Shown here: one piece after another, positions 1,950 through 56,448 of the stretch
How the letters are laid out: each line of letters starts with the position of its first letter
How positions within the stretch are numbered: position 1 is the first letter of the stretch
Source: Candidatus Bathyarchaeia archaeon
GTDB lineage: Archaea > Thermoproteota > Bathyarchaeia > Bathyarchaeales > Bathycorpusculaceae
Assembly: GCA_049512075.1 (NCBI GenBank)
Contig: JBEKXL010000001.1
Span: 1-64,000 of the forward strand
Reading direction: 5' to 3'
Length of the DNA: 64,000 bases
Made by a program: the position numbers and the translations under genes
The notes under the pieces: generated by a model
The model's input: the letters and a program-made list of their open reading frames with translations, nothing else
The model's database searches: none
Told to the model about the DNA's origin: nothing

Positions 1950-2187
1950 ATCAAACCCTTCCACCAATACAAATGGCGCGAATGACCAATTAAAAGTTTG
2001 CCCAAATCAACAGCCCACATTCGGTTTCGTATCAAAACCATCATAAATAACAACCAAAAATGATGAATCCATCGAAGAACACCACGCGCAGTCCGTTGCT
2101 AGACAAGACCCCTGATCACTGTAGCGCGCGCTGCGTTTGATACAATATTGGCCGTGATTAATCATTGTGCTCATAGAGACGCGCGCG

Positions 2188-2238
2188 AAAATCTACAACT
2201 ATGCAAGAACAGCAGAAGAAATACAGAGCCATTATGCG
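2188..2238 (+). pseudogene. 17-codon remnant resembling the end of a LamG/concanavalin A-like domain
   Basis: Translates KIYNYARTAEEIQSHYA (cf. LamG DEVKIYNxALSxEEI); no start codon; flanked by CGCGCGCG and GCGTGCGC. Confidence 0.5.
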
Positions 2239-2358
2239 TGCGCTATGACGGCTGGGAACTGAAACAGGCATTGAGCAATTATGAATACTTGCTTGAAAAG
2301 GCGTGAAATCGCAATAGAGACTTGAGTCAATGCTACAAGAGATCTCTTGTTAGGTCTC

Positions 2359-2520
2359 TTAGGGGTAGTGTTGTCCGTAGTGGTTGGGCATTAAGAATAG
2401 ATCTGACGAGCCCACAATATTGTTGCCGTTTATGTCCGCGTTTGGATTCCAATTGACGCTGCTTGGCATAGACTTGCAGGCGTTTGCTAGAATAGTCAAG
2501 TCTGACAGAACGACTTTAAA
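2359..2520 (-). pseudogene. Degenerate dockerin-like C-terminal fragment (copy 2)
   Basis: FKVVLSDLTILANA..WNPNADINGNNIVGSSDL..HYGQHYP*; first Ca-binding loop missing; joined to the T-run that ends copy 1. Confidence 0.75.
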
Positions 2521-2841
2521 AAAAAGAAGACGGTTGTGGGTAGTGTTGGTTGTAGTGTTTGGCCATGATGGAAAGGTCGGATAGGCCAACTGTGCCGTCG
2601 CTGTTTATGTCCGCGTTGGCGTTCCACTTTGCATCGCCTTGCTTGGTGTTGTAAGCCTTTGCGAGGATGGATAGATCAGACAGGCTGACTTTGAAGTCGC
2701 CGTTGAGATCGCCAGGAATTGTTACAATTGCCCAGATTGGCGCGAGCAAGTTGTTGGTCGTGTCCGTTTCGCTAGGAACTGGAGAAATGTAGGCGCTTAG
2801 TGTGTAGTTGCCGAAGGCGAAACCTGTCGTGCTCTATGAGA
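2516..2841 (-). pseudogene. 3' remnant of a CARDB plus dockerin-like surface protein gene (copy 1)
   Basis: TTGFAFGNYTLSAYISPVPSETDTTNN then PGDLNGDFKVSLSDL..ADINSDGTVGLSDL; in-frame TAG at 2834-2836; no 5' part. Confidence 0.8.
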
Positions 2842-2849
2842 GCGCGCGC

Positions 2850-3087
2850 CGACTATGCTCACGAAGTTCGTGACACCTTCTATGTCCAAGACTTTGCTGG
2901 CCACAGAGACATCAAGTCAACAATGCTCTACATCCATTTGGAGAAAAAAATCTACAAAAACCCTGTGAACGAAGACTTCTATGTAGCAAGTGCCAAAACC
3001 ATTGATGAAGCGTCCAGCCTAATAGCTATGGGCTACGAATTTGTCCATGAATACAGCGGAGTGATGCTCTTTCGCAAACGCAAGTAG
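2850..3087 (+). pseudogene. C-terminal fragment of a tyrosine recombinase/integrase
   Basis: VQDFAGHRDIKSTMLY (box II H/Y motif) plus AKTIDEASSLIAMGYEFV..FRKRK tail; catalytic R and HxxR region absent. Confidence 0.8.
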
Positions 3088-3190
3088 CTCTCGAAAAATA
3101 AGCTATATATCCGCAGATATAAGTCATAAATCGTAATATAGGTTAAATCTTTTAAAGGATGAAGGATATACAAGAAAAGGACAGGATGAT

Positions 3191-3529
3191 GTGAAAATGA
3201 AAGATGGAGAAGAGAAGAAGGCGATACACATTCTGACGGACCCGAAACTTTCGGCGATCAAGGCTATGCTTGAAAAAGACCACGCTATAGACTGCATTCT
3301 GTTGCTGCACATCAGTCGTGGAAAATGGAAAGAGGCGAAAGACTTCATGCGCCAACACCGGCTGACGCTCAGCGACGGCACCTTCAGGGCCAGAATGATA
3401 GAAATCGAACACTTAGGGCTGGCTAAGAGCGAGCGGATAGACCCGCTCAAGAAGCTCTACAAGATAACACCACAAGGCAGGAAAATCGCGGAGCTACTCA
3501 TAGGACTGTTTGACAAACTGGAAGAATAA
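3191..3529 (+). CDS. Winged helix-turn-helix transcriptional regulator
   Basis: LSDGTFRARMIEIEHLGLAKSE..YKITPQGRKIA wing motif. Confidence 0.75.
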   Translation: MKMKDGEEKKAIHILTDPKLSAIKAMLEKDHAIDCILLLHISRGKWKEAKDFMRQHRLTLSDGTFRARMIEIEHLGLAKSERIDPLKKLYKITPQGRKIAELLIGLFDKLEE

Positions 3530-3728
3530 ACCCGAAAAACACGAACACGCACAACTGTACAACACTTTCTTTTTCAACGTTCAGGACGCACTAGGCTAGG
3601 TGTACTTCCTTGGGATATGCGTATTTTTGTCATACAAATAGGTAATCTTGTGTAGTGAGTCGTAAGATTTAAAAGCTTAGCCTCCACTAAAATACTCAAT
3701 AACTCCAGAAGGAGGGATAAAAAAGAAA

Positions 3729-4139
3729 ATGAAGATATTGAGAAGCAGAAAAGCCCTAAGCCCGGTAGTAGCCTCAATCATACTCATCGCCGTGACAGTC
3801 GCAGTCAGCATAGCAGTAGCAGCATGGATGGGAGCACTAACCTTCAACTTCATGGCAACAGAACAGGGACAAATATGGAACCTTCAGTTCACAGCAGGAA
3901 ACCCAGGTGGAACTATTCTGGTCACATTCAACAACACTGGAACTACTCCGATAACACTCAACCAAGCATGGGTAAAGGGTATACAGGCAACCGTTGGAGC
4001 CTTGCCTCAAACTGTTACAGCCAATAATGGGACCCAAATCACCATAACGATGACCATCATCTCAGGCGCCTCTTACGAAGTCAAACTTACGTCTTCAAAG
4101 GGCAACACGTTCCTCAGGACCGGTGTGGCTCCCAGCTAA
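3729..4139 (+). CDS. Archaeal type IV pilin/archaellin-like protein with class III signal peptide
   Basis: RSRKA|LSPVVASIILIAVTVAVSIAVAAWM; Thr-rich beta domain with NxT sequons; T-rich terminator-like tract at about 4141-4152. Confidence 0.9.
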   Translation: MKILRSRKALSPVVASIILIAVTVAVSIAVAAWMGALTFNFMATEQGQIWNLQFTAGNPGGTILVTFNNTGTTPITLNQAWVKGIQATVGALPQTVTANNGTQITITMTIISGASYEVKLTSSKGNTFLRTGVAPS

Positions 4140-4215
4140 TCTCCCCTTTTTGTCAAGATTGGGGGGGTACCAGAATCCAGTTTCCCATATTGTTTCCTGT
4201 TTGGAGGTGCAATAA

Positions 4216-4641
4216 ATGGTTGTGGAAATAAAAGAGTACGGTTCAGCAGAAGAGATAGCCGAAACCTTGGACAAGGAGATTTCCGAAACTAAGAGTACGT
4301 TAGGCGAGTACCTGCGACGGCTGGACGACATCAGAGCTTTGGCAGAGAAGTCGAAGAAGATTCGTGAGGTAGTCATGAAGCTCGCCGGCAAAAAAGCGTC
4401 GTCTGAAAGCTTGGGAGAGATTTCAGTCGGCAGCTTGAGCATAGTGCTGGACGCAAATCCTTTCCACGAGTTGACGGCCATCGAAGAGGTTGTGCGAAGC
4501 CATCAGGAAAGACTCCTGGTTTTGCAGAAGGCCCGCGACGCGTTGAAGTGGCTAGACCAGCTCGGCGACACCGAAGGCCTCAAATACCTCGTCATTGAGA
4601 GCGACGGCGTTCCTGAACGAATACTCTTCAGAATAACTTAG
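4216..4641 (+). CDS. Hypothetical protein, helix-hairpin-helix coiled-coil pattern
   Basis: 141 aa ORF with GGAGG upstream; two long amphipathic helices around a beta-rich segment. Confidence 0.7.
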   Translation: MVVEIKEYGSAEEIAETLDKEISETKSTLGEYLRRLDDIRALAEKSKKIREVVMKLAGKKASSESLGEISVGSLSIVLDANPFHELTAIEEVVRSHQERLLVLQKARDALKWLDQLGDTEGLKYLVIESDGVPERILFRIT

Positions 4642-4661
4642 CCTCATGAGAAGGGAAAACC

Positions 4662-5474
4662 ATGGAAAACGACGTTTACTCCTTTGCCCTAAGGAACACT
4701 CTGACCGAGATCACTAACGCGTGCCCGGACATTCTAAGCATCTTCTTGTTCAAAGAAGACGGCGACATCATAAGCGGAGAAGAAAAAGCTCAGGAAGAAG
4801 CCGCGGTGCACACTGTTGACGCTCTTGATGACGTTCTGGAAAAAGCCAAAGCTCTAGGCGGCGCAGAAAGCATACGCCTTGAGGGCACCAAGGGCACAGT
4901 CAATGTTTCGCGCGTAAACGACTTTTACCTGGTAACCGTAGTTCCCGAAAAGGCGGACCTGAAATACATAAATATCTTCACCAATGCCCTTCTTCCGACA
5001 GTTTTAAAACTTCTTGACAAAATCGCCCCCGCCCTCAACAGAAACAGCCCGTCTGAAACTGAAAACGAAGAGCCCAGGGTCAGACCAGTCATCAAGCCCA
5101 ATGAAGAATCTACCGAAGAGGCTGCGGAGAAGCACGAAGAACACGAGGCGGCTGAAGCTAACCCAGAAAAAATTCTTCCAGAGCCTCAAGTAAACCAGTT
5201 CATCGTGGAGAACGTCGGAGGCCTGTTTGCATCATCAGATACCGTGCGCATCGACTGCGACACACTGTCACAATGGACAGAACTGTATGAAGACAAAAAG
5301 ATCGAGGAAGCCACAGTCGAGACCTTCCTAGGAAAATCAGTCCGCTGCAAACTCAAACCATTAAAGAACGCAAAACTCGAAGGAAAGGGTATCATACAGA
5401 TTCCCGAAAAAATCCAACAAACGCTGGACATAAGGAAAGGCGAACTCGTCAGGGTTAAACCAGTAATCGAGTGA
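4662..5474 (+). CDS. Roadblock/LC7-like domain, acidic linker and double-psi beta-barrel-like C-terminal domain
   Basis: N-terminal ILSIFLFKEDGDII roadblock pattern; C-terminal TVRID..GIIQIPEKIQQTLDIRKGELVRVKP resembles CDC48-N. Confidence 0.65.
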   Translation: MENDVYSFALRNTLTEITNACPDILSIFLFKEDGDIISGEEKAQEEAAVHTVDALDDVLEKAKALGGAESIRLEGTKGTVNVSRVNDFYLVTVVPEKADLKYINIFTNALLPTVLKLLDKIAPALNRNSPSETENEEPRVRPVIKPNEESTEEAAEKHEEHEAAEANPEKILPEPQVNQFIVENVGGLFASSDTVRIDCDTLSQWTELYEDKKIEEATVETFLGKSVRCKLKPLKNAKLEGKGIIQIPEKIQQTLDIRKGELVRVKPVIE

Positions 5475-5487
5475 CTGAGGCTTCAAC

Positions 5488-5883
5488 ATGGTTAAGCAAA
5501 AGAAAAACCTTCAAGAAACTGCCAGCGAACTCGAACCGATAGCCATTGAGAAAGCAACATGCGAAGACAACGTGCGACCTATCTTAGAAGAAATCAAGAA
5601 ATCCGACGGAGTCATAGGCTACATCCTCAGAAACACCACGTCAGCAACAATAGATCTCAACGATCCAACCAAAGTAATAGACTACGCAACTCTCTCTTCC
5701 TCAACCTTCGAAGCAAGCGAACAACTCTCAGAACTGTTCGATCTGGGCAAAATCAAAAACATCACCGTGGAAGGAAAAGACACAAACACGCTCCACCTGA
5801 ACATTGACGAAAACAACATAAGCATCTTCATGGAAAAAAATGTAGACGCAAAGAAAATCCTCGAAAAAATGCATACACTATAA
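5488..5883 (+). CDS. Roadblock/LC7 domain protein
   Basis: ILEEIKKSDGVIGYILRN..ELFDLGKIKNITVEG pattern. Confidence 0.75.
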   Translation: MVKQKKNLQETASELEPIAIEKATCEDNVRPILEEIKKSDGVIGYILRNTTSATIDLNDPTKVIDYATLSSSTFEASEQLSELFDLGKIKNITVEGKDTNTLHLNIDENNISIFMEKNVDAKKILEKMHTL

Positions 5884-6249
5884 GGACACACAGCAAATCA
5901 GCTGCGCATCCTGTGGACGTTCAACAGTTCTTTCCTGAGACAAGCCGCTCGAGAACTTTACAAAGCACGAAGTATCCTTTTTTCTTCGTCCAGAGTTTTG
6001 GAATTTTCCCAGTTTTGTGTCAGATTTGCAATGTGAAACCTGTTTTTATGCCATGATTTACCGAGCTAGTTTCCTCTGGCCCCCACGGGAAAGAGCACGT
6101 TCATAGTCCGCATGCAACCGATCAAACAGCGGATCCATGAATTGCGGGATTCCTGTTCTATGTTCTTTTTGGGAATATTGTGGTGAGAGAAATAAAGTAT
6201 TATCTATTAAGATACAACTTAATCAATGTTGACGTTAAGGTGGAAGACC

Positions 6250-6540
6250 ATGCTCAAAAAAACGGAATTCTGCGAAGAAATCAACACGAATCAACAGGTT
6301 GACGCTAAAAAAACGATAGAGGCTACCTTGCAAAAGCTGCAAGCTTTAAAGAGTAGAATATCAGAATTGAGAGCCCATTATGAAGAACTTCAAAAAACAC
6401 ACGCTGAAGATCAAAGCAGTTTACGTTGCGACGAATGTGGGGGTGGCATAGAGCCGGGGCAGGAAGTCGAGGCCAAGAACTTCAGTGAAAAAACGCATCA
6501 TTACCATAAGGAATGTTTCCGAAAACTCTGGCAACAATGA
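6250..6540 (+). CDS. Coiled-coil protein with C-terminal LIM-like zinc finger
   Basis: Heptad-rich N-terminal half, then CDECGGGI..HYHKECF. Confidence 0.6.
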   Translation: MLKKTEFCEEINTNQQVDAKKTIEATLQKLQALKSRISELRAHYEELQKTHAEDQSSLRCDECGGGIEPGQEVEAKNFSEKTHHYHKECFRKLWQQ

Positions 6541-6566
6541 TCCTTGTAAGTGCATCCCGCAAACCG

Positions 6567-6836
6567 CTAGACACGCGCTTGTTTTCTTCGACGAAGCTTA
6601 AGTGTCTCTCGCAGAGTCTTCTCAGCAGTTGCAACGGAGAAGAGCAGGTCGTCGATGGTGGCGATAAACGTTGGAAAACCTTGATGACATTTTATCCGGG
6701 TAACCACTTTTGCCTTTTCGGTTCTTGTCTTGACTGATAGGCCTGTCGGCGTTCCATAATTGTCTGGGGACACAGCGTCAGCGATGGCTTCGGCTATGTT
6801 CGTATCATCATACTCTATTGCTATTTCAGCTTCCAC
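6567..6836 (-). CDS. pcc1: KEOPS complex subunit Pcc1
   Basis: AEAIADAVSPDN..ATIDDLL; position after DHH gene. Confidence 0.85.
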   Translation of the reverse strand: MEAEIAIEYDDTNIAEAIADAVSPDNYGTPTGLSVKTRTEKAKVVTRIKCHQGFPTFIATIDDLLFSVATAEKTLRETLKLRRRKQARV

Positions 6837-8283
6837 TTCTCTCGCCTTTCAACTGTTTCCCGACCAGTTCATTCACGGTTTTTATGAAGTTGTCTATGTC
6901 TTCGATGGGTACCTGTGCGCCGGCGGCAACGTTGTGTCCTCCGCCTTTTCCTAGGAATTTTTCTGCTGCGGCCTGCATTATCTCTCCCAGGTTGAGGCCT
7001 CTGCTCGTGACCGTGTCCGATGCTCTTGCGCTGATTTTCGCGATGTCTTCTCCTTCGACGTTTGAGTAGGCGATCAAAGGTTTCTCAGGGTTTGGGAGGC
7101 TTCCTGAGAGTATGGATGAAATCGCGCCGATTATCTTGTCGTCTATGAAGCCCTCGCCAGAGACGACGTAGATGTTTTCAAACTCTTTGACGCGTTCGGG
7201 CTTCTCCATGACCCATCCTAGGTACTTGTTTAGCGTTCTTCTGTAATCGTCCAGAACCTTGTTTGCCCCTTCAAGCCCTTGCCCTCTGTCACCCATGCAC
7301 ACGGCTATTCCGAGACCAGGCTTGTCCATTCTACCAGTGGCATTCAACAGAACAGCAAATTCCCGGGCATCCCTGAGCGGAGTCCAAGGTTCTTCACGGT
7401 TCAAGATGTAAACGTGCCCTATGAGGTTTGAAACTTCGTAGCGCAAACCCTTCGAGAGCAGGTGATCTGCCAAAGCCGAACACAGTCGCTTCTTCTCTTC
7501 CTCTGAAAGGTCCCTAAGAGCCCGCCATTTGTCACCCTCCCTTGGTTTGATGCCTAGGCTTGCCAGAAAAGCCAAGCTCTTGTCTTCTTCACCGCTTATG
7601 CCCGGAATAAACGGGCTGGTAGTTGAAGCCAAGGTCTTATGGATGGGCCGAGTTTCCCTGCCGAAGAATATCAAATCTTTCTCCACAGTGAGAAGGCCCG
7701 AATTTCTCGCATCTCCAAGTATTCTCCCATTGAGTCCTCCGAGCATTCGCTGATCATACTTGTCCTGCATGTCTCCTAATGCCCCGACAACGGCGATTGG
7801 AGCCAAATCAACGTTGACCTTGTCAAGAGCATGGGCGACAAAATATGCCACACCCGCTCCGCTAACGTCCCTTGCGCCATCAATTCCATACAGATGCGGG
7901 TTCACATGAACAAAGTTGGCTGACTCCTTACCGATTATCTGATGGTGATCCAGGATGGCGATTTTGAAGTCAGCGAGTTTCTGACTTAACAAATCCACGT
8001 ATCCGCTTCCTAAATCGGTGAAAATCACCAACTGCGGCTTATCCGAGAGAATCTCGCCCACGATCTTCTGTTCAATCCACTGAGTTATTCGAATCCGAAA
8101 TCTCGCATCCAGCCTGAACAGCGCCTTTCCGATTATCCCCGCTGCTGCAACTCCATCAGCGTCCAAGTGTGAAAAAACATGGATAAACCCGTCTGCCTTA
8201 ACCGTCTCCAAAATCGTCTTGGCTGCCTCGTCAGCCGAATTCAGAAAACACGCAACCTGGTTCTCGTTTGAGGTTGAAGCCAT
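6826..8283 (-). CDS. DHH-family RecJ/Cdc45-like phosphoesterase
   Basis: HLDADG, TDLGSG, LDHH and GGGHNVAAG motifs. Confidence 0.92.
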   Translation of the reverse strand: MASTSNENQVACFLNSADEAAKTILETVKADGFIHVFSHLDADGVAAAGIIGKALFRLDARFRIRITQWIEQKIVGEILSDKPQLVIFTDLGSGYVDLLSQKLADFKIAILDHHQIIGKESANFVHVNPHLYGIDGARDVSGAGVAYFVAHALDKVNVDLAPIAVVGALGDMQDKYDQRMLGGLNGRILGDARNSGLLTVEKDLIFFGRETRPIHKTLASTTSPFIPGISGEEDKSLAFLASLGIKPREGDKWRALRDLSEEEKKRLCSALADHLLSKGLRYEVSNLIGHVYILNREEPWTPLRDAREFAVLLNATGRMDKPGLGIAVCMGDRGQGLEGANKVLDDYRRTLNKYLGWVMEKPERVKEFENIYVVSGEGFIDDKIIGAISSILSGSLPNPEKPLIAYSNVEGEDIAKISARASDTVTSRGLNLGEIMQAAAEKFLGKGGGHNVAAGAQVPIEDIDNFIKTVNELVGKQLKGERSGS

Positions 8284-8384
8284 GGGCTATCACTGTAGGC
8301 TAGAGGATCAAGTTATTTAAGGATTTAAGACTGGCAACACGCATTTTTCTATGTGTAGGCAAAAAAAATTCTAACTAAAGACGT

Positions 8385-8828
8385 TTAGGTTATCGAAGCT
8401 ATTTTCGCCACATACTTCCAGTTTGGAGGCAGGATGCCCTTATGCTTGTAGTATCTTGAGATTTTGTGTATCTTCGCCTCAATCAGCTGAAGGGCCCTTT
8501 TGTTAATCTGATCAGTTCTGTTCTTTTCAAGATGAAGAGAAAGGCTCTCAGCTTTCTTGAGCAGACTTGCCAAGTCTTCAGGCAATGATGGAGCAAGCTC
8601 GTTTTCTTTGAGCACCACCATCACCCTTTTTCCGATTATCGGCTTTGCCAACGGAATCGCGTGCTGATCTCTAAGTATCGTCCCGATGCGACTGGGAGAG
8701 TTGCCCTCCTTCCCCAGTTTCACGATCAAAGCCTCTACCTCTTCCGGCTGATACTTGCACCAGCTCGGAGGGCGTTTGCTAACTGGTCTTATCTGATGAG
8801 ACTTTCCCTTTTCTTGTTTAGGCATCAA
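8385..8828 (-). CDS. rps15: 30S ribosomal protein uS15 (S13e-like)
   Basis: GKSHQIRP..SRIGTILRDQH..LPEDL..IEAKIHKISRYYK. Confidence 0.95.
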   Translation of the reverse strand: MMPKQEKGKSHQIRPVSKRPPSWCKYQPEEVEALIVKLGKEGNSPSRIGTILRDQHAIPLAKPIIGKRVMVVLKENELAPSLPEDLASLLKKAESLSLHLEKNRTDQINKRALQLIEAKIHKISRYYKHKGILPPNWKYVAKIASIT

Positions 8829-9024
8829 CTATCCCTTAAACTCTGTATCAGCGAAGGTACGCGCATATTTAAGAATAACTGTCTCTTTCGACGACACATG
8901 CTCTTTTCATTCACTTCTGTTTTCTGAAGAGTTTCTTTCAACCAATCTCCCCAGCGTATTAGACCTCACTTCTGGCAATTTGCTGGCCGTTTCAAGCGGG
9001 CGCCTCCAATCTATGCGCATGCAT

Positions 9025-9930
9025 TCATATTGAAAAAGTGTGCCTTCGATATTTCCAAGCGTCTGGATATGAATAAGGAATTATCCACATGAAGGCGTAA
9101 AGGAAGGATTTCAGCAAATCAAACCCGGGACTAACCCTGTTAACAGTCCTCGTAAACACGCCTGCACGTTTTTCATAGGAAACCCTTCCATACTCGCCCA
9201 AAATCCTTGAAAACTTGTGGTCTTCTGCCACGGCCAATTCTGGATCGTACAGATATCCCTCATCTGCACGAATTCTAAGAGCTACTTCACGCAGAACGGC
9301 AATACTGAATCCTGGCACACTTGGGCCCGAGATAGGAGTGCCCCGAATTCTTATGGTTGGGATTTTTGTCGAAAACCAAACGGTGTAGTTCTCCCCCATG
9401 GTTCCAAATCTGCGACTGACTTTCCGTGTGTCACTTGCCCTGGCAGAAGGAGCTGCTCCTACAATGTTCTTGCTTCTTAGCGCTTTATACATCACCTCAA
9501 AGTAGTTTTCATACTTGTCAAGTTTCGAGTTTACATACTTGAGATCCAACTCGGTGCCGCTGGAAAATTGGGTATCTATATCCTGAAAAACTACGATGGT
9601 TCCTCTTGCGTAAGAAAAACCGAGGTTCCTACCTATTGTAGGAGAGTCCCATGACTTGTACTTGATCTTTCCAGACTCGCAAAGTCCCCGTCTATATTTC
9701 TCATAGGTTTCGTAATCTATTAAATTGGAATCACTCAATTCTGGAAAAACTGCGTTTTCTCCTGCATCAACGATAACGAATTCTATTTTCTTGCCTGTTT
9801 TCTTCTCGAAAAGCTGCTTGACGGTTTCCCAGTTTTCAAAAGTCTCCTCAAAGAGCCCCTTGTTCTTCTCGTTTTTTGCAGTAGTTATGACCGAGAAAGT
9901 TGGTTGTACCATGGTAGGATGAGAATACAT
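9025..9930 (-). CDS. Glycosyltransferase family 2 (GT-A fold)
   Basis: FSVITTAKNE, FVIVDAG, GRNLG, FQDIDT (DxD) and AEDH motifs. Confidence 0.8.
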   Translation of the reverse strand: MYSHPTMVQPTFSVITTAKNEKNKGLFEETFENWETVKQLFEKKTGKKIEFVIVDAGENAVFPELSDSNLIDYETYEKYRRGLCESGKIKYKSWDSPTIGRNLGFSYARGTIVVFQDIDTQFSSGTELDLKYVNSKLDKYENYFEVMYKALRSKNIVGAAPSARASDTRKVSRRFGTMGENYTVWFSTKIPTIRIRGTPISGPSVPGFSIAVLREVALRIRADEGYLYDPELAVAEDHKFSRILGEYGRVSYEKRAGVFTRTVNRVSPGFDLLKSFLYAFMWIIPYSYPDAWKYRRHTFSI

Positions 9931-10094
9931 TAGATTCTTAAACTTTTTCCAAAGCCCGCCCGAACAGTTTGCTTAGCACCCACGTTTCAGACCCATCACA
10001 TCAATAAGTGTTCCTCTTCCTCCTCAAGTCCTGTAACTCGTGCGAAAACACCTTATTCACTCGTTAACAGCGTACTCGCTCGGCCTAATTGGAG

Positions 10095-10676
10095 TTACTT
10101 ATACCATTCGGCGAATTGCAGAAAAGCAGCCGCGCGGTGAGAAACCTTGCACTTCTCCGCGACACTCATTTGTGCAAACGTTCTGTCACTGTTGTCCGGC
10201 TTGAAGATGGGATCAAAGCCGAAACCCATCTTGCTGTGCGTTTTTCTTTCTTTGCGGATTATTTCTCCTTTGGCTATGCCTTCAAAGCACATCGGTGATC
10301 TCAGCTGCGCAGATAGGTATGCAACTACGGATTTGAACGTCGCTCTTCTGTTATTGGCCCTTTGCATGAGTCTGAGCAAGCCCTTGTTGCCTATCGTCTT
10401 GTAAACGTAAGCAGCATAAGGACCTGGGAAACCGTTCAAGGCGTCTACGAACAGCCCGGCATCCTCAACCACAATTGGTAATCTGTATTTTTCAAAAGCT
10501 TCCATGACGCTTGCATCAGCGATTTCCTCGAGGCTTTCGCTCTGGATTTCCAAGGACTTGATTCTGAGCATTCCGACTGCTATCTTGTTTTCGGCCAAGA
10601 CCTCTCGGGCTTCATTGAACTTGTTGACATTGTTTGTAGCGAAAAAAACGAAGTTGCCTTTCAACTGTCTCTCCAT
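10095..10676 (-). CDS. rdgB: Non-canonical purine NTP pyrophosphatase (RdgB/HAM1)
   Basis: FATNNVNK, EDAGLF..GFPGPY, GFGFDPIF and SHR motifs. Confidence 0.95.
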   Translation of the reverse strand: MERQLKGNFVFFATNNVNKFNEAREVLAENKIAVGMLRIKSLEIQSESLEEIADASVMEAFEKYRLPIVVEDAGLFVDALNGFPGPYAAYVYKTIGNKGLLRLMQRANNRRATFKSVVAYLSAQLRSPMCFEGIAKGEIIRKERKTHSKMGFGFDPIFKPDNSDRTFAQMSVAEKCKVSHRAAAFLQFAEWYK

Positions 10677-10735
10677 GGAATTTCACGGCTCTCTCTTATC
10701 TGAAACGTGAAGAGTCATACTCCAAACGGTCTTGC

Positions 10736-12411: not shown

Positions 12412-12443
12412 TTTTCTCGTCCTTGAACACGATTCTTTGGGTC

Positions 12444-14193: not shown

Positions 14194-14195
14194 TC

Positions 14196-15553: not shown

Positions 15554-15570
15554 AAGAGGATGCTGAGCAC

Positions 15571-48255: not shown

Positions 48256-49407
48256 TTAGAGGGAAACAAGTTTGTCTTGAGCTGCTGCCAACCCTGCTCC
48301 AAGGCTGAACTTGTAAGCAAGATGTGTTAACGCTTGTTCTATGGCTCCTATGGTTGAAAGTATATCGTTTTCGCTCACGTTTCCCATGTGACCGACTCTA
48401 AACCCTTTGCCCTTTATTGGCCCGATCGTGGCGGCGACTACTACTCCGTGCTTTCGCATTTCACTCCTGAATGCTGTATCCTCGACGTTCTCAGGGTAGA
48501 AAGCTGCTGTCAGAGTGTCTGCTGCACATTCCCTTTCTGCTACGAGTCTGACATTAAGAGCATCTAGTGCAGCTCGAAAAGCTTCGGCTATGATGTGATG
48601 CCTCATGAATCTCTGTTCCAGCCCTTCAGCAAGAATTGCTTTCAAAGATTCAGAGAGAGCATATGTCATGTTAACGGCCGGTGTGGCAAAATACTTAGAT
48701 GGGTCTCTCATCACAGGTAACCAGTTCTTGAGGTCGCCGTACCAAAATCCTACAGGGGTCTTTCTGTTTTCCAGAAGGTTGAGGACTCTGTCGTTTGTAG
48801 AAAGCAGGGCCAAGCCTGGCGGAACCCCTATGCATTTTTGAGAACCGCTGACGCAAGCGTCTATATTCCAGTCGTCAACTCGGACCTCAATTCCGCCTAA
48901 GGAGCAAACCGTGTCAACAATGTAGAAGGCGTCGCTGTTTTTCTTCACAATCTGGCCAATTTCCTTAATCGAATTAATTACTCCTGTAGAAGTATCCACA
49001 TGCGTAACTGTGACCGCTTTGTAATCATCTTCCTCTAGAGCTTCTTTGACTTGGTTCGGTTTCACACATTTACCCCACGGCGCCTCCAGAACCTTGGTTG
49101 CAGCTCCATGAGCTTTTGACATTCTTGCAAAGTAGTCTCCAAAATACCCTACCACGATGTTCAGGATTTTGTCTCCAGGCTCTACGATGTTTGCAATGCC
49201 AATTTCTAATGCCAAGGTTCCTGATCCGGCAATGACGAAAACTTCGTGTTTGGTCATGAACACCTTTTTCAAGTTCTCGAGTGCTTCTTTGAAGGTTTCA
49301 ACAAACTGTGGATCCGTGTGCGCGAGGGTTGGCTTGCTTAACGCGCGCAGAACCAGGGGATCCACATTTGTCGGACCTGGAATCATGAGAAGTTTTCTTT
49401 CACTCAT
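48256..49407 (-). CDS. Class V aminotransferase (alanine-glyoxylate/serine-pyruvate)
   Basis: LMIPGPT, HVDTSTG, VDTVCSLGG, GSQKC and FRVGHMG motifs. Confidence 0.92.
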   Translation of the reverse strand: MSERKLLMIPGPTNVDPLVLRALSKPTLAHTDPQFVETFKEALENLKKVFMTKHEVFVIAGSGTLALEIGIANIVEPGDKILNIVVGYFGDYFARMSKAHGAATKVLEAPWGKCVKPNQVKEALEEDDYKAVTVTHVDTSTGVINSIKEIGQIVKKNSDAFYIVDTVCSLGGIEVRVDDWNIDACVSGSQKCIGVPPGLALLSTNDRVLNLLENRKTPVGFWYGDLKNWLPVMRDPSKYFATPAVNMTYALSESLKAILAEGLEQRFMRHHIIAEAFRAALDALNVRLVAERECAADTLTAAFYPENVEDTAFRSEMRKHGVVVAATIGPIKGKGFRVGHMGNVSENDILSTIGAIEQALTHLAYKFSLGAGLAAAQDKLVSL

Positions 49408-51470: not shown

Positions 51471-52598
51471 CTATCTTTTCTTAGTCTCCCCCACAATATC
51501 TTCGATTGGCCTGTAACCTATGTCAAAACCAAAGTGTCTCGGGGAGAACAACTCTATTCCTTTTTTGGTCCTCCATATCATGTAGGCTCTTCTTCCAAAA
51601 ACCACAACTTCTCTATTCTTCCCGAATTCCTGACCCCAAACGGACAGTCCTTCACCCGTTTTTGCGTCGACAACGCAGATAGTGTCTGGACAGGTGACGT
51701 ATGGCCTTTCGTTCAGCCATGTAATCATGTACTCGTTCTTGAACCAAATCGTGAGTACTTCTTTTCGAAAACCTTCATTGCCTGAAATACTAATGTTGCC
51801 CCACATGAAACCTGCTTCTTCTTTTCTCTCGAAAGAGTTCACATTGCCACGGAACAGCAGGTATCCATCACAAGTCTTGATCAAAGCCTGCACGGGATCT
51901 TCTCCGCGTTCCCTAGCTTGTCTGACACTTCTTCCCACTCCTATGGTCGCAGAAATCGAATTAGGAACAACCGCATCCCTGACGTCCCTTCCAGTTGTAG
52001 CGCATCTCGCGACTCCGCACTTTCCACCAGACGCAACTGCCATGTATCTGCAGATGTCTTCAGCCCTAGCGTCATCGACAACATTCTCGACAATCATCGT
52101 TTCTCCGAATGGAGTGACAATCGCCAAAGGAAAAGCATTAAGGCCTACCACATTCGTGGTGGACAGAGAAATCTCAGGTTTGGCTCTTCCTCCCCCTGCA
52201 TTACAGTCGACACAGCAGGTGTCCATCATTGCAGCAATGTACGTCGGTATCGCAGTGTTGAAAGGCCCAATTTCACTGGGGAAGAAAGCGTAGGGTTCTT
52301 TTCCAAGATATTCAGCGAGCGCTTTTTCAGCTGCAAATTCAGGTTTCTTCTCAATTCTTGGCAAATTGCTAACTTTTTTTCTAGCTTCTCCGGAAACACC
52401 GCCTCCGACAATTCCGACTATCATCACGATTTCATCGTCTGGAATCTCTTCAATATCCATAAGCCTAAATTATTTCTTCTCTGCGTAAACCTCTTCTATC
52501 AAAGGCCTAGCTGATTCTATCTCTCCACCTCCGCCAACACCCAAGATCTTGGCCCCCACCAACAGGTCCTCAATATCCAGTCTGGGGAGGGTTTTCAA
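51471..52598 (-). pseudogene. DUF917 (S-methyl thiohydantoin desulfurase-like) gene with in-frame stop
   Basis: TTG 52598 gives MKTLPRLDIEDLLVGAKILGVGGGG..KK*FRLMD (TAA at 52470-52472); SEIGPFN, GRAKPE, FKNEY and TCPD motifs downstream. Confidence 0.85.
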
Positions 52599-52834
52599 AA
52601 GATTTTATCTCCAGAGGCAACGAATATTGGAAAGATTGGAAAAGTTGATTTAAAAGTTTTGCGCGAGTCAGCGCACGCGCCGACTTATCGTGAATCTCTC
52701 GCGCCACAAACTATTGATAATGGCCCGGAGATTAGCACCCTCCAAAGCCTTTGCTGCCTATTTGGTCTACTTTTTGTCTGAAATGGCGCCTGCGATGTGA
52801 CTAAGGTAAAACATGAGACCGACCATGAGTCTTA

Positions 52835-53107
52835 ATGAGGGCATACATTTGGCCCACGATTGAAGTCACAGTGAAGGATGTTAAGGGAAGGTGTGCGTTC
52901 GCATACAAAGTGGGCGACAAAATAACCTTTGATGGTAGAACGGTGAAAGGCGATATGTGCTATAGTGTTTTGACAGTTTACTTCCAAGCTATTTGCAATG
53001 CTTTATGGGGCAAAGTCTCCATGGACTCAAAACAAGGATATAGTGCCCAATTCTTTCCCGATGCTCAGAATCCAGCGGTACTAGAAATCCGGCGAATTAG
53101 AAAATAA
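52835..53107 (+). pseudogene. Degenerate TIGR04076-like small Cys protein
   Basis: VKGRC..KVGD..CY and PDAQNP..EIRR are in frame, but the family-like middle (KLFAMLYGAKSPW) lies in another frame, implying compensating frameshifts. Confidence 0.6.
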
Positions 53108-53228
53108 CGGCGCGCGCATGGTGGAAGCAAGTTCTCTCTTCTTTCTAATGAGATACACTTCATCCAAAGCAATCCGCGCGGCTGAAGATTTATTAGACTA
53201 GGAATGCAGAACAGCAACGAGTGAAATC

Positions 53229-54152
53229 ATGTTTGACGAGCGAATTTTCAAGAGAGTTCTACTTGCTGTGGATGGTTCACTTCCGTCTATCACCGCTGAA
53301 GAACTAACAGTCTTTATGGCCAAGAAACTTGATTCACATGTGACAGTTCTCAACGTGATATCTCATGAATTCATGGACTCGCGGCTTGGCAGTTACATTC
53401 CAATCTTGTACAAGGATACTCCCTTGGGTACTGGAGGTCGTCCTGAAGAGCGTGTTTCTGAACTGCCGGCTTCAGGCACCGGTGAAGCTCTTTCAAAGGA
53501 AATCACAGCGTCATATCTAGGACGCAGCACAGAAATAGTTGAAGAAGCTGCAGCACTTTTTGAAGAGCAAGGCATACGAGTAGATCGGAAGATTCTAGAG
53601 CATGCTGATCCAGCCGAAATTATCACAAGAGAGGCTGAAAAGGGAAACCACGACTTGATAGTTGTTGGGTACAGCGGACAGGATGATAAGGAACCGCATC
53701 TGGGAAGCATTGCCAAGAAAACTGCCCTGTACGCTAAAACTTCCGTTCTTGTTGCAAGAGAGAAAAGTCAAATATCGAAAATGATGGTTCCAGTGGACGG
53801 CTCTGAGCATTCAAAAAAAGTGGTCCGATACGCTGCAGTTCTGGCCTCCAAATTGGGGGCTAATGTTTTACTTCTTAATGTTCAAGAACCTGATTTACCT
53901 CCCAAAATCATGAAGGAAATGGGGATACGAATACTATCCGAGGCAGTGGGCCAATTTAGAGGGACGAAGCTAGATCAGAAGCTGGTATCGGGCGATCCTG
54001 CCAAAACAATTATTCAAACGGCAAGGGAGGAGGACTGCGACCTGATACTCCTGGGACACAAAGGGCATTCCGCGGTCATCCGATTTCTACTGGGCAGCGT
54101 GAGCGACCACGTAGTCCAATACGCAGACCGCTCAGTACTCCTGATAAGATGA
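53229..54152 (+). CDS. Tandem universal stress protein
   Basis: Two USP domains: LAVDGS..DLIVVG..LGS and VPVDGS..GDPA..LLGSVS. Confidence 0.93.
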   Translation: MFDERIFKRVLLAVDGSLPSITAEELTVFMAKKLDSHVTVLNVISHEFMDSRLGSYIPILYKDTPLGTGGRPEERVSELPASGTGEALSKEITASYLGRSTEIVEEAAALFEEQGIRVDRKILEHADPAEIITREAEKGNHDLIVVGYSGQDDKEPHLGSIAKKTALYAKTSVLVAREKSQISKMMVPVDGSEHSKKVVRYAAVLASKLGANVLLLNVQEPDLPPKIMKEMGIRILSEAVGQFRGTKLDQKLVSGDPAKTIIQTAREEDCDLILLGHKGHSAVIRFLLGSVSDHVVQYADRSVLLIR

Positions 54153-54339
54153 AATGTCGTCATCTCGTAATACTTTGGAAGAGTTTGTTGCGCACTCGGG
54201 CAAATCTTCTAGGCGTTGTTGGATAACATTGCGTTACTCGAGCTCTGGCATCTAAAAAGTGGCGTGTTTTGGCAGTCTATTTGTTTTCCAAAAGCAATAA
54301 ATAACATGTGGAATCTGAGATTGAATGAATGTGGTACAT

Positions 54340-54789
54340 ATGTCTAAACCTGAGAAGAACGTGGCCATCATAATCTGTGATCGCTACCACACTTGTGCTG
54401 GCGGAAAATGTTTCAGAGCCTTGAGGAATAGAGAAGGGGCTTTCAGTTTATACAAGGATGAAGATGTGAAGTTAGTAGGTTACACTACTTGCGGAGGATG
54501 CCCAGGTGGAAATGTCGAGTACTGTGTCGAGGAGATGAAGAAAAACGGTGCTGACGTGGTACATTTTGCAACTGGCATGGTCGTCGGCTACCCGCCCTGT
54601 CCCTATATTGACAGTCTTCAAAAATTCGTTAAGGAAAAATACAACATAGATGTTATTGTCGGTACACATCCGATTCCACAGAAGTATTACTTAACCCATC
54701 AGGCTTTAGGAACTTGGGATTCGCCTGAATGGAAAGATAAGATCAAGCTCATATTGACAGATGAGCAAACGAGATTAAAATACAATTGA
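54340..54789 (+). CDS. CGGC domain metal-binding protein
   Basis: IIC..CAGGKC..TCGGCPG..HFATG..PPCP..GTH. Confidence 0.88.
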   Translation: MSKPEKNVAIIICDRYHTCAGGKCFRALRNREGAFSLYKDEDVKLVGYTTCGGCPGGNVEYCVEEMKKNGADVVHFATGMVVGYPPCPYIDSLQKFVKEKYNIDVIVGTHPIPQKYYLTHQALGTWDSPEWKDKIKLILTDEQTRLKYN

Positions 54790-54889
54790 TTCGAATTTCC
54801 TTCGTTTTCTTGTAGGATACACTGTATTTAGCATACGGTTTATGGCAAGATTTTTATTGATATAGATGTACTTTCGAAGAGGTGAAAAA

Positions 54890-55930
54890 ATGTCTTGGTA
54901 CATGGAATTAGGAAAAGCTGCAGATACCTTGGTGAACTATGTTCTAAGAGTGAAAAAGAATGAGGATGTTCTAATCTATGGAGACGATATCGTTGATTTC
55001 GAAGTGTTGAAAGCGACAGCAGCTGCTGCGAAAACCGCTGGAGCAACGCCTACCATAGTTATTCACGAGACGCGTGAAATTTCCTTCACTGAACCACCCA
55101 AACCTCTCGCCGCAGCAATGATGGATTCAGATGTCACAGTGGAATTCTCAGCCAGAGCTATACTCTACACAACAGGTCAGACAAACGCCTTAAAGAGAAA
55201 CAGGGCTTACATTTGTCTAACATCTCTTGACCGTGAAGCGATGGTCAGAACCTTAGGCTGGGTAAACTATCCGAAAATGATTGAGCTAGGAGACAAACTC
55301 GCAGAAATGACAACCAAAGCTAAAGAGATTAAGGTAACCAGCCCATCTGGAACGAACTTTACTGCCCAGATTGGCGGACGGAAGTTTGAGAACTTCGGTA
55401 GCACGGCAGACAAAAGGAAGGTCATAATGCTAGGCGGTCAGACTGGTGGTGCTCCGATTGAGGAGACGGAAAATGGTGTCCTTGCTTTTGACGGAAACGT
55501 TTGGCCTCCAGACGAGATCAAAGCAAACATAAGAACCCCCATAAAATGCAAAGTTGAAAAAGGCGTCATCACAGAAATTTCCGGCGGCGTAGAGGCTGAC
55601 ATACTCCGAAGATACATGGCTAGCCTTAAGGACAAGAATCTCTACAGAATCGCACATGTCTGCTATGGATATCATCCTAAAGCAAGAGTAACCGGCGACA
55701 TATCAGAGGTTGAAAGGGTTTGGGGCTGCTTCCAAGTCGGATGGGGCTCGCAAGGGCCGCTTCTGAGACCAGACCTCAAGGGCGCTTTCGGATGGAGAGC
55801 TGCATCTCACGATGATGGCATCATTCTGAAAGCATCGATATACCTTGACGGTGAACCAGTGCAGAAAGATGGAAAATTCGTCCATCCAGACTTGTTGCCT
55901 ATCATAAAAGAGATGGGTGTTGAACAATAG
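54890..55930 (+). CDS. M29-fold metalloprotein, NicX-like ligand set
   Basis: SPSGT, GGQ, NGVLAFDG, IAHVCYG, EVERVWG and SHDDG motifs. Confidence 0.75.
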   Translation: MSWYMELGKAADTLVNYVLRVKKNEDVLIYGDDIVDFEVLKATAAAAKTAGATPTIVIHETREISFTEPPKPLAAAMMDSDVTVEFSARAILYTTGQTNALKRNRAYICLTSLDREAMVRTLGWVNYPKMIELGDKLAEMTTKAKEIKVTSPSGTNFTAQIGGRKFENFGSTADKRKVIMLGGQTGGAPIEETENGVLAFDGNVWPPDEIKANIRTPIKCKVEKGVITEISGGVEADILRRYMASLKDKNLYRIAHVCYGYHPKARVTGDISEVERVWGCFQVGWGSQGPLLRPDLKGAFGWRAASHDDGIILKASIYLDGEPVQKDGKFVHPDLLPIIKEMGVEQ

Positions 55931-56204
55931 GAGCGCAAATCCTTTTTTCTTCTGCCTTTTTTTGTTTTATGAGCTCAACTCCCAGATGAGCAGATGGCAG
56001 ACATCTCCTTATTGCTGTCTGACGGAGAGCCAGGCATAGCATTTGTTCAATTAGGTTCCCATCAGCTGTAGATACCGAGAAGCAAGCGAACATGGCATAA
56101 TAGAAAGCAGAGATATGTTGAACATTAACAATTGGACTTGCATGTTTTTAATATGAAGAAATCATTCCTGAGAGTTGGAAAAAGGCAGCAAAAAAAGAAA
56201 GGGG

Positions 56205-56330
56205 CTATCGTACTACTCCCATTTCCTTGACAATCTTAGCTAGCTGCGGGTGGACGTATTTCCCGTCCTTTTCTATGATTTCGCCATCTAAGTATACTGT
56301 TGGGTTCAGCATTTTGCCGTCACAGTAAGC
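56205..56330 (-). pseudogene. C-terminal 41 codons of another M29/NicX-like paralog
   Basis: AYCDGKMLNPTVYLDGEIIEKDGKYVHPQLAKIVKEMGVVR*, with its own T-rich terminator-like tract; begins directly after CGCGCGCGC at 56331-56339. Confidence 0.85.
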
Positions 56331-56448
56331 CGCGCGCGCAGATGCGACAGTCCCGTGTATAGGTCGGGAGATTTAGCTTTGCTACGGAGACATTTTCTAA
56401 AAATCTCCAAAGTCGGAAATTTAAAAAGGAGGAAAAATGGGTTTTTAT

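Follow-up and report, generated by a model that had tools for sequence, protein, structure and literature searches.

The 8-bp GC-rich palindrome HIP1 (GCGATCGC) is over-represented many-fold in cyanobacteria, with a lineage-patchy distribution and no settled function, and according to excerpts of three papers it occurs on average more than once per gene in some of these genomes and is tied to two methyltransferases (PMC5861425, PMC4390886, PMC13756078). The archaeal motif described here, written (A)GCGCGCGC(T) after its 8-letter core GCGCGCGC, resembles HIP1 in being a GC-rich palindrome of 8 bp whose abundance differs sharply between related lineages, but differs in that 85–91% of its copies are intergenic, no C5 methyltransferase was found alongside it, and it occurs as de novo filler where the ancestor had none. 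HIP1 copies reportedly border a deletion at the Synechococcus metallothionein locus.

Other known systems share single traits with the motif. End-joining junctions contain non-templated filler nucleotides (bacterial Ku/LigD; eukaryotic TdT, Pol mu and Pol lambda), and to our knowledge these fillers have no fixed sequence. The joints described here likewise carry short extra DNA where sequence was deleted or captured, and the analysed genome has a complete Ku/LigD operon, but 12 of 17 fillers share one palindromic core, Ku does not track the motif, and PolX was not found in this genome. The mobile GC clusters of yeast mitochondria and other short selfish organelle palindromes are foldable and tens of bases long; they too are GC-rich palindromes in A/T-rich spacers, with clean presence/absence between strains and a position at deletion or recombination endpoints, whereas the archaeal motif is 8–10 bp long, chromosomal, and takes the place of lost DNA. 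REPs (REP/BIME, RAYT transposases), which are imperfect palindromes of 20–40 nt that open with a conserved tetranucleotide, also form hundreds of extragenic, lineage-specific copies, whereas the archaeal motif lacks conservation beyond a 10-mer. Transposon excision footprints and solo ends are sequence-defined scars of DNA removal with A/T-biased flanks as well, but no parent element was found here, and the removed segments are ordinary genes. Finally, integron cassette arrays likewise place a recurring palindromic site (attC) between short segments of unrelated DNA, but the archaeal site measures 8 bp, has no linked integrase and arises de novo at deletions. We found nothing comparable in the published literature, and the almost wholly intergenic GCGCGCGC, often precisely at sites of deletion, insertion or truncation, points to an undescribed way of rejoining broken DNA.

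Abundance, length and placement of the motif

Within the analysed genome (G000, a metagenome assembly of 86 contigs and 2.73 Mb), the core occurs at 547 sites, lies inside 547 of the 581 tracts of at least 8 nt, and is the most over-represented 8-mer (1292 occurrences on both strands vs 56–89 expected under Markov orders 0–3; z = 127). Tract lengths peak at 8–10 nt and drop sharply at 11 (195, 284, 186, 105 and 3 tracts of 7, 8, 9, 10 and 11 nt, respectively), with no run-away expansion beyond 10 nt, so that the motif is a discrete one. An A is favoured before the tract and a T after it (T at position +1 in 67% of core-ended flanks), TAGCGCGC is over-represented too, and conservation stops at position ±1. 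Neighbouring motif pairs less than 400 nt apart number 111.

An earlier note had reported nine CG-alternating tracts of 8–9 nt in the window (the whole 64,000-nt stretch analysed), at 2124, 2180, 2842, 23310, 25445, 34485, 37529, 53110 and 56331, and had proposed that they exceed chance and avoid intact genes. All nine are present where reported, against roughly one expected per 64 kb, and both trends extend genome-wide, the excess with a Markov null. Overall, 242 of 284 8-mers, 156 of 186 9-mers and 96 of 105 10-mers are wholly intergenic (85–91%), compared to 1801 of 8834 4-mers (20%), by approximate gene calls from a crude caller that covers 78% of the genome. Motif density is ~0.9 per kb of non-coding DNA and similar in convergent, tandem and divergent spacers (0.69–0.95 per kb), with no spacer-type preference and no constant spacing from start or stop codons genome-wide. 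Given this even density and flanks unconserved past ±1, we rejected promoter, terminator and MITE identities. The tract phenomenon belongs to the genome and to parts of the class, and is not special to the window.

Junctions in the window

Positions 1–3118 have paralogous matches only, with no syntenic match in four congeners. There, one motif copy (AGCGCGCGCT, 2124–2131) lies in a gene-free patch (1968–2515), and a second tract (CGCGCGCG, 2180–2187) immediately precedes a gene sliver, as had been claimed: a 50-nt match (90%) to G001:C6 opens at 2188, the first base past the tract. A third copy (2842–2849) had been described as joining two broken genes, and two back-to-back fragments do meet there. 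On the minus strand, a 5'-truncated dockerin-domain gene fragment (2516–2833; Pfam Dockerin_1, 5e-10) ends at the tract, and its more than 10 paralogous alignments in congeners all end at 2834. On the plus strand, the C-terminal remnant of a tyrosine recombinase (2850–3087; translation ...GHRDIKSTMLYIH...) begins at it, with a weak Pfam match below the cut-off (Phage_integrase, E 0.0085, profile positions 141–170 of 172).

A glycosyltransferase gene whose 5' part is gone (17099–17916, minus strand; GT28 C-domain, Pfam Glyco_tran_28_C, 2.9e-22) provides a further junction, at a 7-nt tract (17917–17923) that is 9 nt long in another population, i.e., in run X2, where GC is inserted behind 17916. 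Alignments of this gene stop at 17918 in G002 and at 17915 in G004; in both congeners it continues with mutually homologous sequence, while G000 has the tract and unrelated DNA. The tract does behead the gene, as initially suggested.

The remaining tracts occupy varied settings. The one at 23310–23318 marks the edge of a segment (~23270–24111) without match in relatives, with homology of all four lost between 23269 and 24112 and the G002 alignment (query 3257–3318) stopping on the final base of the tract. The tract at 25445–25453 sits in a colinear convergent spacer with substitutions between genomes (GTGCGCGC in G002, unrelated sequence in G003), and that at 34485–34493 at an indel joint, where 5 nt in G000 correspond to 43 nt in G002 and ~1 kb lies between the same flanks in G003 and G004. 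The tract at 37529–37536 precedes gene 36149–37483, with 46 nt separating it from the start codon and a TATA-like box on its other side; it is identical in G002 and G003 and is replaced by 7 unrelated nt in G004 and G001, the flanks being otherwise conserved. Another 7-nt tract, absent from the original list, is found at 49342–49348, 60 nt inside the longest ORF there (48256–49407), and a motif copy (53110–53117) falls in a segment without G003 match (~51538–54282), G002 having no match beyond 50777. The last tract (56331–56339) lies in a convergent spacer (55931–56448) that is unalignable in G003, with 110 nt between it and the stop codon of an M29-peptidase-like ORF. It had been thought to precede a truncated peptidase, but the adjoining 349-aa ORF shows no sign of truncation; similarly, the ORF taken for a primase remnant (19440–19880) has no Pfam match.

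Breakpoints, fillers and polarised events

We compared G000 mainly with G002, a 95%-identical congener. Near motif sites there are 141 unique orthologous alignments, of which 33 run across the motif and 108 end within the compared stretch. As far as approximate alignment ends can tell, 38 of these 108 stop between −25 and +8 nt from the motif edge, including 22 no more than 3 nt away. For random intergenic sites (three control sets), 186 of 347 alignments span the site, and only 9 of 161 ends are equally close (Fisher p = 5e-10). Cases with one flank only or with non-colinear flanks outnumbered colinear ones by 169 to 48 at motif sites, compared to 303 to 204 at controls.

The same pattern emerges from a catalogue of 83 indel events, 41 of which have one allele ≤25 nt. 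Among the 17 joints with a filler of at least 3 nt, 12 hold the motif or a near-motif (perfect in 6, with one mismatch in 3, and a 7-nt tract in another 3) vs 3.5% expected (p = 2e-14); the other 5 lack it, as do 9 of 11 blunt joints. It is rarer in the older G000–G003 comparison, at 4 of 22 filler joints. One repeat family of ~40 copies is cut at about nine different positions, with a tract at each break.

Only three events could be firmly polarised by outgroups (65 of the 83 indel events have none in the DNA compared), and in each the tract stands in place of ancestral DNA whose two boundaries were tract-free. G002 carries TAGCACGCGC where a 2551-nt segment present in G000 (38750–41300) was lost with its two genes of 215 aa (weak ParB_N) and 460 aa (PALP; both Pfam); G003 covers the whole segment, and the G003, G004 and G001 alignments cross its left boundary to 40000, the query end. 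At C13:24736, 776 nt within a helicase gene, retained in G002 and G004, gave way to ACCGCGCGCGT in G000. The third case is the glycosyltransferase truncation at 17917. One event is opposite or ambiguous: 992 nt in G002, missing from G004 and G001 as well, exactly replace a tract that is intact in G003 and decayed in G000.

Existing tracts also receive DNA, with tract-internal insertions flanked by a 7-nt duplication at C33:10338 and C26:22707, and one fragment copy has tracts as its borders. Tracts are sometimes the substrate of later insertions and not a product alone. Some copies differ among genomes solely by single substitutions, and motif conservation does not exceed that of the flanks (17 of 41 identical vs ~43% expected from 90% flank identity). 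Taken together, the central proposal of the earlier note, filler at breakpoints, is supported by homology ending at the motif above controls, the filler joints, the polarised cases and contigs that bridge the junctions; cut/fill/religate cycles, Ku/LigD as determinant, and the two local examples at 56331 and the primase remnant are not.

Origin of the tracts

On balance, the motif is probably in the main a product of break rejoining, with the scar later re-used as a docking site. Upon loss of a chromosome stretch or capture of foreign DNA, the joint would be sealed with 5–15 nt of filler whose core is four GC dinucleotides. We infer that one dedicated, putative activity writes this tract, which would act as a universal sticky end: two GC-repeat 3' ends could pair whatever their register, and extension would then stabilise the duplex enough for ligation. 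Joints in needed genes would be purged by selection, so that copies would accumulate in spacers and next to gene remnants. Being self-complementary and present in hundreds of copies, the tract could then be re-used: an insertion into a tract would place a copy on either side, and loss of the DNA between two tracts would leave a single one.

Alternatively, nothing may write tracts, and they may be mere pre-existing hotspots of breakage or recombination (Z-DNA-prone DNA, a topoisomerase or endonuclease site, or universal microhomology). This would suit the segments at C33:10338 and C26:22707 that have a tract on both sides in one genome and a single tract in the other, the 575 nt between GGCGC and CGCGC at C16:38284, the 992-nt replacement, the full-length copies of inter-tract fragments with a tract at the other copy's border in about half (25 vs 28), and the contig ends near tracts (28 of 88 vs 15.5% by chance). 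We nevertheless consider it unlikely, because it gives no source for an 8-mer that is discrete and about ten-fold in excess, and the ancestral sequence was tract-free at both boundaries in the three polarised cases. In 37 of the 41 events with one allele ≤25 nt, moreover, the long allele has no tract at up to 12 nt from either junction, and these include 7 of the 8 with the motif in the short allele. Doubtful, too, is a footprint or the solo ends of a putative cut-and-paste element with GCGC termini and an A/T or TA target, whose excision would leave 4 + 4 bases. No parent element was found and none of the 83 indel events has a tract at both long-allele ends, in-register repeat families beside tracts are tiny, covering 32 of 1066 flanks, the lost segments, unrelated at their ends, consist of ordinary syntenic genes, and tracts are missing from the catalogued classical insertions with 9–12-bp target duplications, even though such an element would fit the A and T flank preference, the excess of TAGCGCGC, the clean 10–12-nt tract-containing presence/absence differences at C4:16404, C15:13623 and C33:12331, and a patchy class distribution as expected of a mobile agent.

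A functional intergenic signal, i.e., a site bound by a regulatory or nucleoid protein, or a palindrome of the HIP1 type that selection or methylation-linked repair maintains, would make the junction link a by-product of variable, spacer-rich DNA. Like HIP1, the motif is a lineage-limited, hyper-abundant 8-bp palindrome, its copy at 37529 is retained in three genomes, and point substitutions create or erode some copies. However, alignment ends cluster within 3 nt of tracts compared to controls from the same intergenic DNA, the motif keeps no fixed gene distance or preferred spacer type, it shows no conservation above flank level, and the genome yielded no C5 methyltransferase; we thus hold this reading to be quite improbable. 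Tracts are also enriched near contig ends of this 86-contig metagenome assembly, as assembly or amplification artefacts at strain-variable positions might be. Such an origin is practically out of the question given that four further runs, from as many studies, yielded independently assembled contigs with the same junctions, which bridge 2124, 2180 and 17917 (contigs of runs X2–X5 span 441–2687/2696 across 2124, and one X2 contig, 2677–3148, bridges 2842). In addition, tracts are shared at orthologous places by different species-level genomes, as at 37529, and the motif properties recur in another family.

Among candidate enzymes, the operon for Ku, LigD primase-polymerase and ligase-phosphoesterase is complete in G000, yet Ku and the motif do not co-occur across 301 genomes of the class (Ku in 4 of 18 motif-rich genomes vs 69 of 283 others), and Ku was not found in the motif-bearing congeners G003 and G001. 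PolX was not found in G000; it occurs mostly in one other family (64 of 71 genomes), which contributes none of the 18 motif-rich genomes. Cycles of cutting, filling and religation at GCGC or CGCG are disfavoured by sites that are not avoided (O/E of 0.89 and 0.97 in coding DNA), the failure to find a C5 methyltransferase in the genome, and the lack of expansion beyond 10 nt; restriction at such sites left no trace that we could find. The motif excess is patchy, being limited to 18 of the 301 genomes, from at least five families, where related genomes are not independent. The genome of another family that repeats the motif properties also links them to breakpoints, with 3 of ~44 alignment ends coinciding with tracts (p = 0.007).

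A discrete eight-base palindrome in intergenic DNA

All nine alternating C/G tracts of 8–9 nt listed in an earlier note (at 2124, 2180, 2842, 23310, 25445, 34485, 37529, 53110 and 56331), which proposed them to be end-joining or deletion scars, were recovered in the window together with its 7-mer at 17917, and an additional 7-mer tract lies at 49342. These tracts are a genome-wide feature and no local oddity of the window. Across the source assembly (G000; GCA_049512075.1, 2.73 Mb, 86 contigs, 47.5% G+C), maximal alternating C/G tracts became fewer with each added base up to 7 nt, in line with expectation (8834, 2105, 669 and 195 tracts of 4, 5, 6 and 7 nt), then rose again at 8, 9 and 10 nt (284, 186 and 105), with 3, 2 and 1 left at 11, 12 and 13 nt, i.e., only 6 of the 581 tracts of ≥8 nt exceeded 10 nt. 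Such a rise at 8–10 nt followed by a collapse from 11 nt is what a discrete 8-mer flanked by random neighbors produces. Overall, 547 of the 581 tracts contained GCGCGCGC, the other phase occurring alone in only 34. No other 8-mer of G000 is as over-represented as GCGCGCGC (z = 127), which occurs 1292 times on both strands vs 56–89 expected under Markov models of order 0–3, so that the excess first noticed in the window holds against a genome-wide null. The base after the core is T in 67% of cases (by symmetry, A before it), and from position ±2 outward the flanks are at background composition.

The location of the copies was evaluated with a crude codon-usage gene caller of our own making, whose calls cover 78% of G000. 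Most 8-mers (242/284), 9-mers (156/186) and 10-mers (96/105) were wholly intergenic, compared to 1801 of 8834 4-mers, while 74 of 575 tracts of 8–10 nt lay wholly inside called genes; of the 76 tracts ≥8 nt within called genes, only 18 sat deep in confident ones. Motif density was similar across spacer types, at 0.89 per kb in convergent spacers, 0.90 and 0.95 in tandem ones and 0.69 in divergent ones, distances to gene starts and stops were broad with no fixed value, and in-register repeat families beside the motif were tiny (32 of 1066 flanks). Taken together, this indicates that the motif is not a promoter, a terminator or a MITE end: a promoter or terminator element was ruled out by the lack of both a fixed position and a spacer-type bias, and a MITE/REP-like family by the lack of conserved flank sequence. 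Copies were clustered, with 111 neighboring pairs <400 nt apart, and were not better kept than their own flanks (17/41 identical).

Within the class, the motif was abundant in a minority of lineages. The 10-mer AGCGCGCGCT is found 115 times in G000 and 29–98 times in four congeners (G001–G004), with 0–9 copies in 26 other relatives and 0–6 copies of reversed-pattern controls. Among 301 class genomes sampled, 18 were motif-rich (28–131 copies, controls 0–5), and these belong to at least five families, including four genera (g1, g30, g35 and g36) of the family of G000, much of families f26 and f31, and single genomes of f27 and f37. The length bump and the position outside ORFs both recurred in an assembly from another family (G121, 400 kb), where we counted 17, 31, 16 and 2 tracts of 7, 8, 9 and 10 nt, 47 of 51 tracts outside ORFs, and A…T flanks in 27 of 51. 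Comparing two 20-kb stretches of G121 to a fragmented congener yielded ~44 alignment ends, of which 3 coincided with tracts, all in one stretch and none in the other.

Homology breaks and indel joints at the tracts

The association of tracts with broken homology was evaluated against 807 kb of G002 (~95% identity) and 1.225 Mb of G003 (~86%). At intergenic motif sites, G002 flanks were one-sided or non-colinear in 169 cases vs 48 colinear ones, compared to 303 vs 204 at three random intergenic control sets (p = 2e-6). When only unique alignments of ≥250 nt and ≥85% identity were considered, 33 of the 141 G000–G002 alignments near motif sites crossed the motif and 108 stopped within the surrounding interval, 38 of these with their end within −25 to +8 nt of the motif edge and 22 within 3 nt. 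In controls, 186 of 347 alignments were spanning and 9 of 161 ends fell equally close (p = 5e-10 and 7e-10 vs motif sites).

Indels were catalogued from 83 pairs of adjacent colinear G000–G002 alignments, 41 of which had one allele of ≤25 nt and the other of ≥40 nt. A motif or near-motif was seen in 12 of 17 filler joints (≥3 nt in the short allele; 6 perfect, 3 with a seven-nt tract and 3 with one mismatch), 2 of 11 blunt joints and 2 of 13 overlap joints (≥5 nt); with 3.5% of random 26-nt intergenic windows scoring likewise, the filler class was strongly enriched (p = 2e-14). A thirteenth filler joint, GCGCGGACG, corresponds in G003 to a perfect GCGCGCGCG. The overlap class consisted mainly of classical insertions with 9–12-bp target duplications, its two motif cases being segments flanked by the tract itself. 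Tract-bearing short alleles were found in G000 and in G002, and the older G000–G003 comparison gave a weaker signal (4 of 22 filler joints with the motif, p = 0.007). Across the 807 kb compared to this one relative, no long allele among the 83 events was bordered by a tract on both sides. There was no sign that fillers had been copied from elsewhere in the genome: for five of them, the longest second copy measured 12–15 nt, about what ~1100 motif flanks would yield by chance. The catalogue also holds insertions of 3–6 kb with 9–12-bp target duplications (TTATAAATA, AAGCTTAATT, TAACCATAATTA) and without GC tract, e.g., at 13482 of contig C30 and 45909 of contig C12, and ordinary mobile elements are therefore active beside the tract-associated events. 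Beyond the window, at 94034–94348 of contig C1 (on which the window spans 1–64000), G002 swaps 313 nt for 7 nt (TAGCACG) within a 1059-codon surface-protein-like ORF, a net loss of 306 nt that keeps the reading frame.

Three events were polarized by an outgroup, and in all three the ancestral sequence was without a tract at either boundary. The 2551-nt segment at 38750–41300, encoding a 215-aa protein with a weak ParB_N match and a 460-aa PALP enzyme, is present in G000 and fully covered by G003; alignments of G003, G004 and G001 pass its left boundary, up to the query end at 40000, and G002 has TAGCACGCGC in its place. At position 24736 of contig C13, G000 has ACCGCGCGCGT in place of 776 nt within a gene that a GKT Walker-A motif and a DEAH box, read from its translation, suggest to be helicase-like; alignments of G002 and G004 run through the long allele (locus L031, 14539–15315), and both have an intact gene. 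At 17917, the glycosyltransferase gene continues in G002 and G004, mutually homologous there, while G000 has GCGCGCG followed by unrelated DNA, and the G000 gene is thus beheaded at the tract, just as the earlier note had read it. One further candidate (event 76) was dropped because it rested on a paralogous match, and for 65 of the 83 events no outgroup was available within the 1.225 Mb of G003, further searches giving partial hints only and no usable outgroup. In addition, a repeat family of ~40 copies, corresponding to the 3′ end of dockerin-type genes, is cut at ~9 different positions with a tract at each break. This family (contig C4, 42121–42380, and ~40 other places) includes DNA downstream of the gene end, in which lies the second most unusual 8-mer of the genome, TGTAATGT/ACATTACA (167 seen, 52.5 expected).

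Elsewhere in the window, the region 2124–2849 is a patchwork in which tract 2124 is followed by 48 nt and then by tract 2180. Homology of the next gene sliver begins at 2188, directly past that tract, so that the earlier placement of a sliver there was correct; tract 2842 does join two gene fragments, namely a dockerin fragment (Pfam 5e-10), in which every paralogous alignment ends at 2834, and a recombinase C-terminal remnant. The last base of tract 23310 is the end of the G002 alignment, tract 34485 is an indel joint, and tract 53110 lies in a segment without G003 match. Two other claims were not supported: tract 56331, supposed to mark a truncated peptidase, is located 110 nt beyond the stop codon of an M29-like ORF for which we found no evidence of truncation, and a supposed primase remnant had no Pfam match.

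The tracts and junctions are not an assembly artefact. The stretch is present in contigs of many public runs, and in four runs from four studies other than the likely source, contigs covering 441 to 2687 or 2696 cross both 2124 and 2180, while 17917 is spanned by contigs covering 17833–20000 or 3119–20000. One contig (2677–3148) crosses 2842, so that all four junctions are bridged independently, and contigs of one run extend the 17917 tract by two bases to a full 9-mer.

Tracts were also re-used, and some copies vary among genomes. At one place where G000 has a single tract, the tract of G002 contains a 302-nt segment and a 7-nt duplication; a 110-nt segment of G000 has the same arrangement. 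Elsewhere, 575 nt lie between GGCGC and CGCGC at a place where G000 has an intact motif, and a 275-nt allele of G000 is a copied fragment with tracts as borders, G002 having only GCACGCG. In G002, 992 unique nt, with a small membrane-protein-like ORF, exactly replace a 9-nt tract that is found in G003 and decayed in G000; the segment is absent from G004 and G001 too, and the direction of this event appears opposite or unclear. Some copies differ among genomes by point substitutions only (e.g., 25445), and other copies by a clean presence or absence of 10–12 nt. Tract 37529 occurs in G000, G002 and G003; in G004 and G001, its place between conserved flanks is taken by seven unrelated bases.

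Candidate machineries and a putative scar-writing activity

Contig C16 of G000 encodes a complete three-gene end-joining operon (locus L127, 5124–8191), comprising LigD_Prim-Pol (3.8e-83), Ku (1.3e-40) and an ATP-dependent ligase fused to a 3′-phosphoesterase (ligase + LigD_N). However, the co-occurrence of motif and ligase/primase-polymerase that the earlier note suggested looking for was not observed: no more than three of the five congeners yielded Ku and the primase-polymerase, which were also present in a motif-poor genus. Across the class, Ku was detected in 73 of 301 genomes, concentrated in few families, with 4 of the 18 motif-rich genomes vs 69 of the 283 others (Fisher p = 1). The relative G010 has Ku and a single copy of the 10-mer, whereas in G003, with its 69 copies, Ku was not detected, and we rejected Ku/LigD as the determinant. 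PolX was also rejected, as it was not found in G000 and occurs mostly in f24 (64/71 genomes), a family with 0 of the 18 motif-rich genomes. Cycles of restriction cutting, fill-in and religation at GCGC, CGCG or GCGCGC gained no support either: these sites are not avoided in coding DNA (observed/expected ratios of 0.89, 0.97 and 1.32 for GCGC, CGCG and GCGCGC), no C5 methyltransferase (PF00145) was found in G000, and tracts show no step-wise growth and rarely exceed 10 nt. A CRISPR-like acquisition was rejected as well, since a simple scan of G000 recovered no regularly spaced array, just three protein-coding tandem repeats. Among 4-bp palindromes, the strongest avoidance in G000 concerns GATC, with observed/expected ratios of 0.66 and 0.68 in coding and non-coding DNA.

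The tracts recall end-joining filler, yeast mitochondrial GC clusters, REP elements, transposon footprints and integron sites, and each of these likenesses fails at least one tested feature, the mismatch with transposon footprints (no parent element with matching termini) being tentative and limited to the 807 kb of G002 compared. To our knowledge, no known repair or recombination system leaves a scar of defined sequence. Our literature searches on GCGCGCGC in archaea and on end joining in Bathyarchaeia returned nothing relevant, and we found no described system doing what the tracts show. The nearest described case that we could find is HIP1 of cyanobacteria, which shares an 8-bp palindrome and a lineage-specific excess. 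The motif of G000 differs in its intergenic restriction and its de novo appearance at joints: HIP1 is abundant within genes too, in contrast to the 74 of 575 tracts found there here. HIP1 also has cognate orphan methyltransferases for its core; of the methyltransferase families, PF00145 was searched for in G000 and not found. A paper on HIP1 (PMC4390886) does not mention “archaea”, “gcgcgc” or “intergenic”.

Overall, the earlier observation of the tracts was confirmed and extended, and the core of its interpretation, that they are rejoining filler, is supported by the breakpoint, indel and polarized comparisons, while neither cut/fill/religate cycles at GCGC or CGCG sites nor Ku/LigD as the determinant found support. 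At the joints of the indel catalogue, filler tends to complete the alternation using G/C bases already at the flank, which suggests a pairing of self-complementary GC ends. An activity may add GC repeats to 3′ ends by extension or capping; pairs of these ends could anneal in any register and would be ligated once ~8 bp have formed, and the resulting palindromes could then provide universal microhomology for later insertions and deletions. Tentatively, and with doubt outweighing confidence, we propose that in some lineages of the class chromosome breaks are sealed by a putative activity which writes an invariant 8-bp palindrome at the joint, and whose patchy distribution would be reminiscent of horizontal transfer. 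The genome would then be a countable record of ~550 break-repair events, and the palindromes would act as minimal docking points, enzyme-independent or enzyme-guided, for gene gain, swap and loss, i.e., a cassette system with an eight-base “site”.

If such a defined-sequence scar system exists, it would represent a new way of DNA end joining in archaea. It would also explain flexible-genome turnover in abundant, uncultured sediment and peat archaea, and offer a built-in marker with which pseudogene formation, as well as deletions and insertions, could be counted and dated in metagenome-assembled genomes. As motif-rich genomes are scattered over at least five families, the responsible gene should be findable by phylogenetic profiling.

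Of 88 contig ends in G000, 28 had a tract no more than 1 kb away, vs 15.5% of random windows, an enrichment that fits strain-variable joints, and this coincidence with strain-variable joints and contig ends means that the tracts matter for assembly and binning of such genomes. Strain variation was also visible elsewhere in the window. At 3865–4179, contigs from three other sequencing runs (X3, X4 and X5) omit 306 nt (3865 to 4172, or 3872 to 4179), a strain-level indel of 102 codons. The population of a further run (X2) carries a 10-nt insertion, CCCAAGAGAT, at 19063 and a 1-nt deletion at 19364, both within the variable island 17924–21831.
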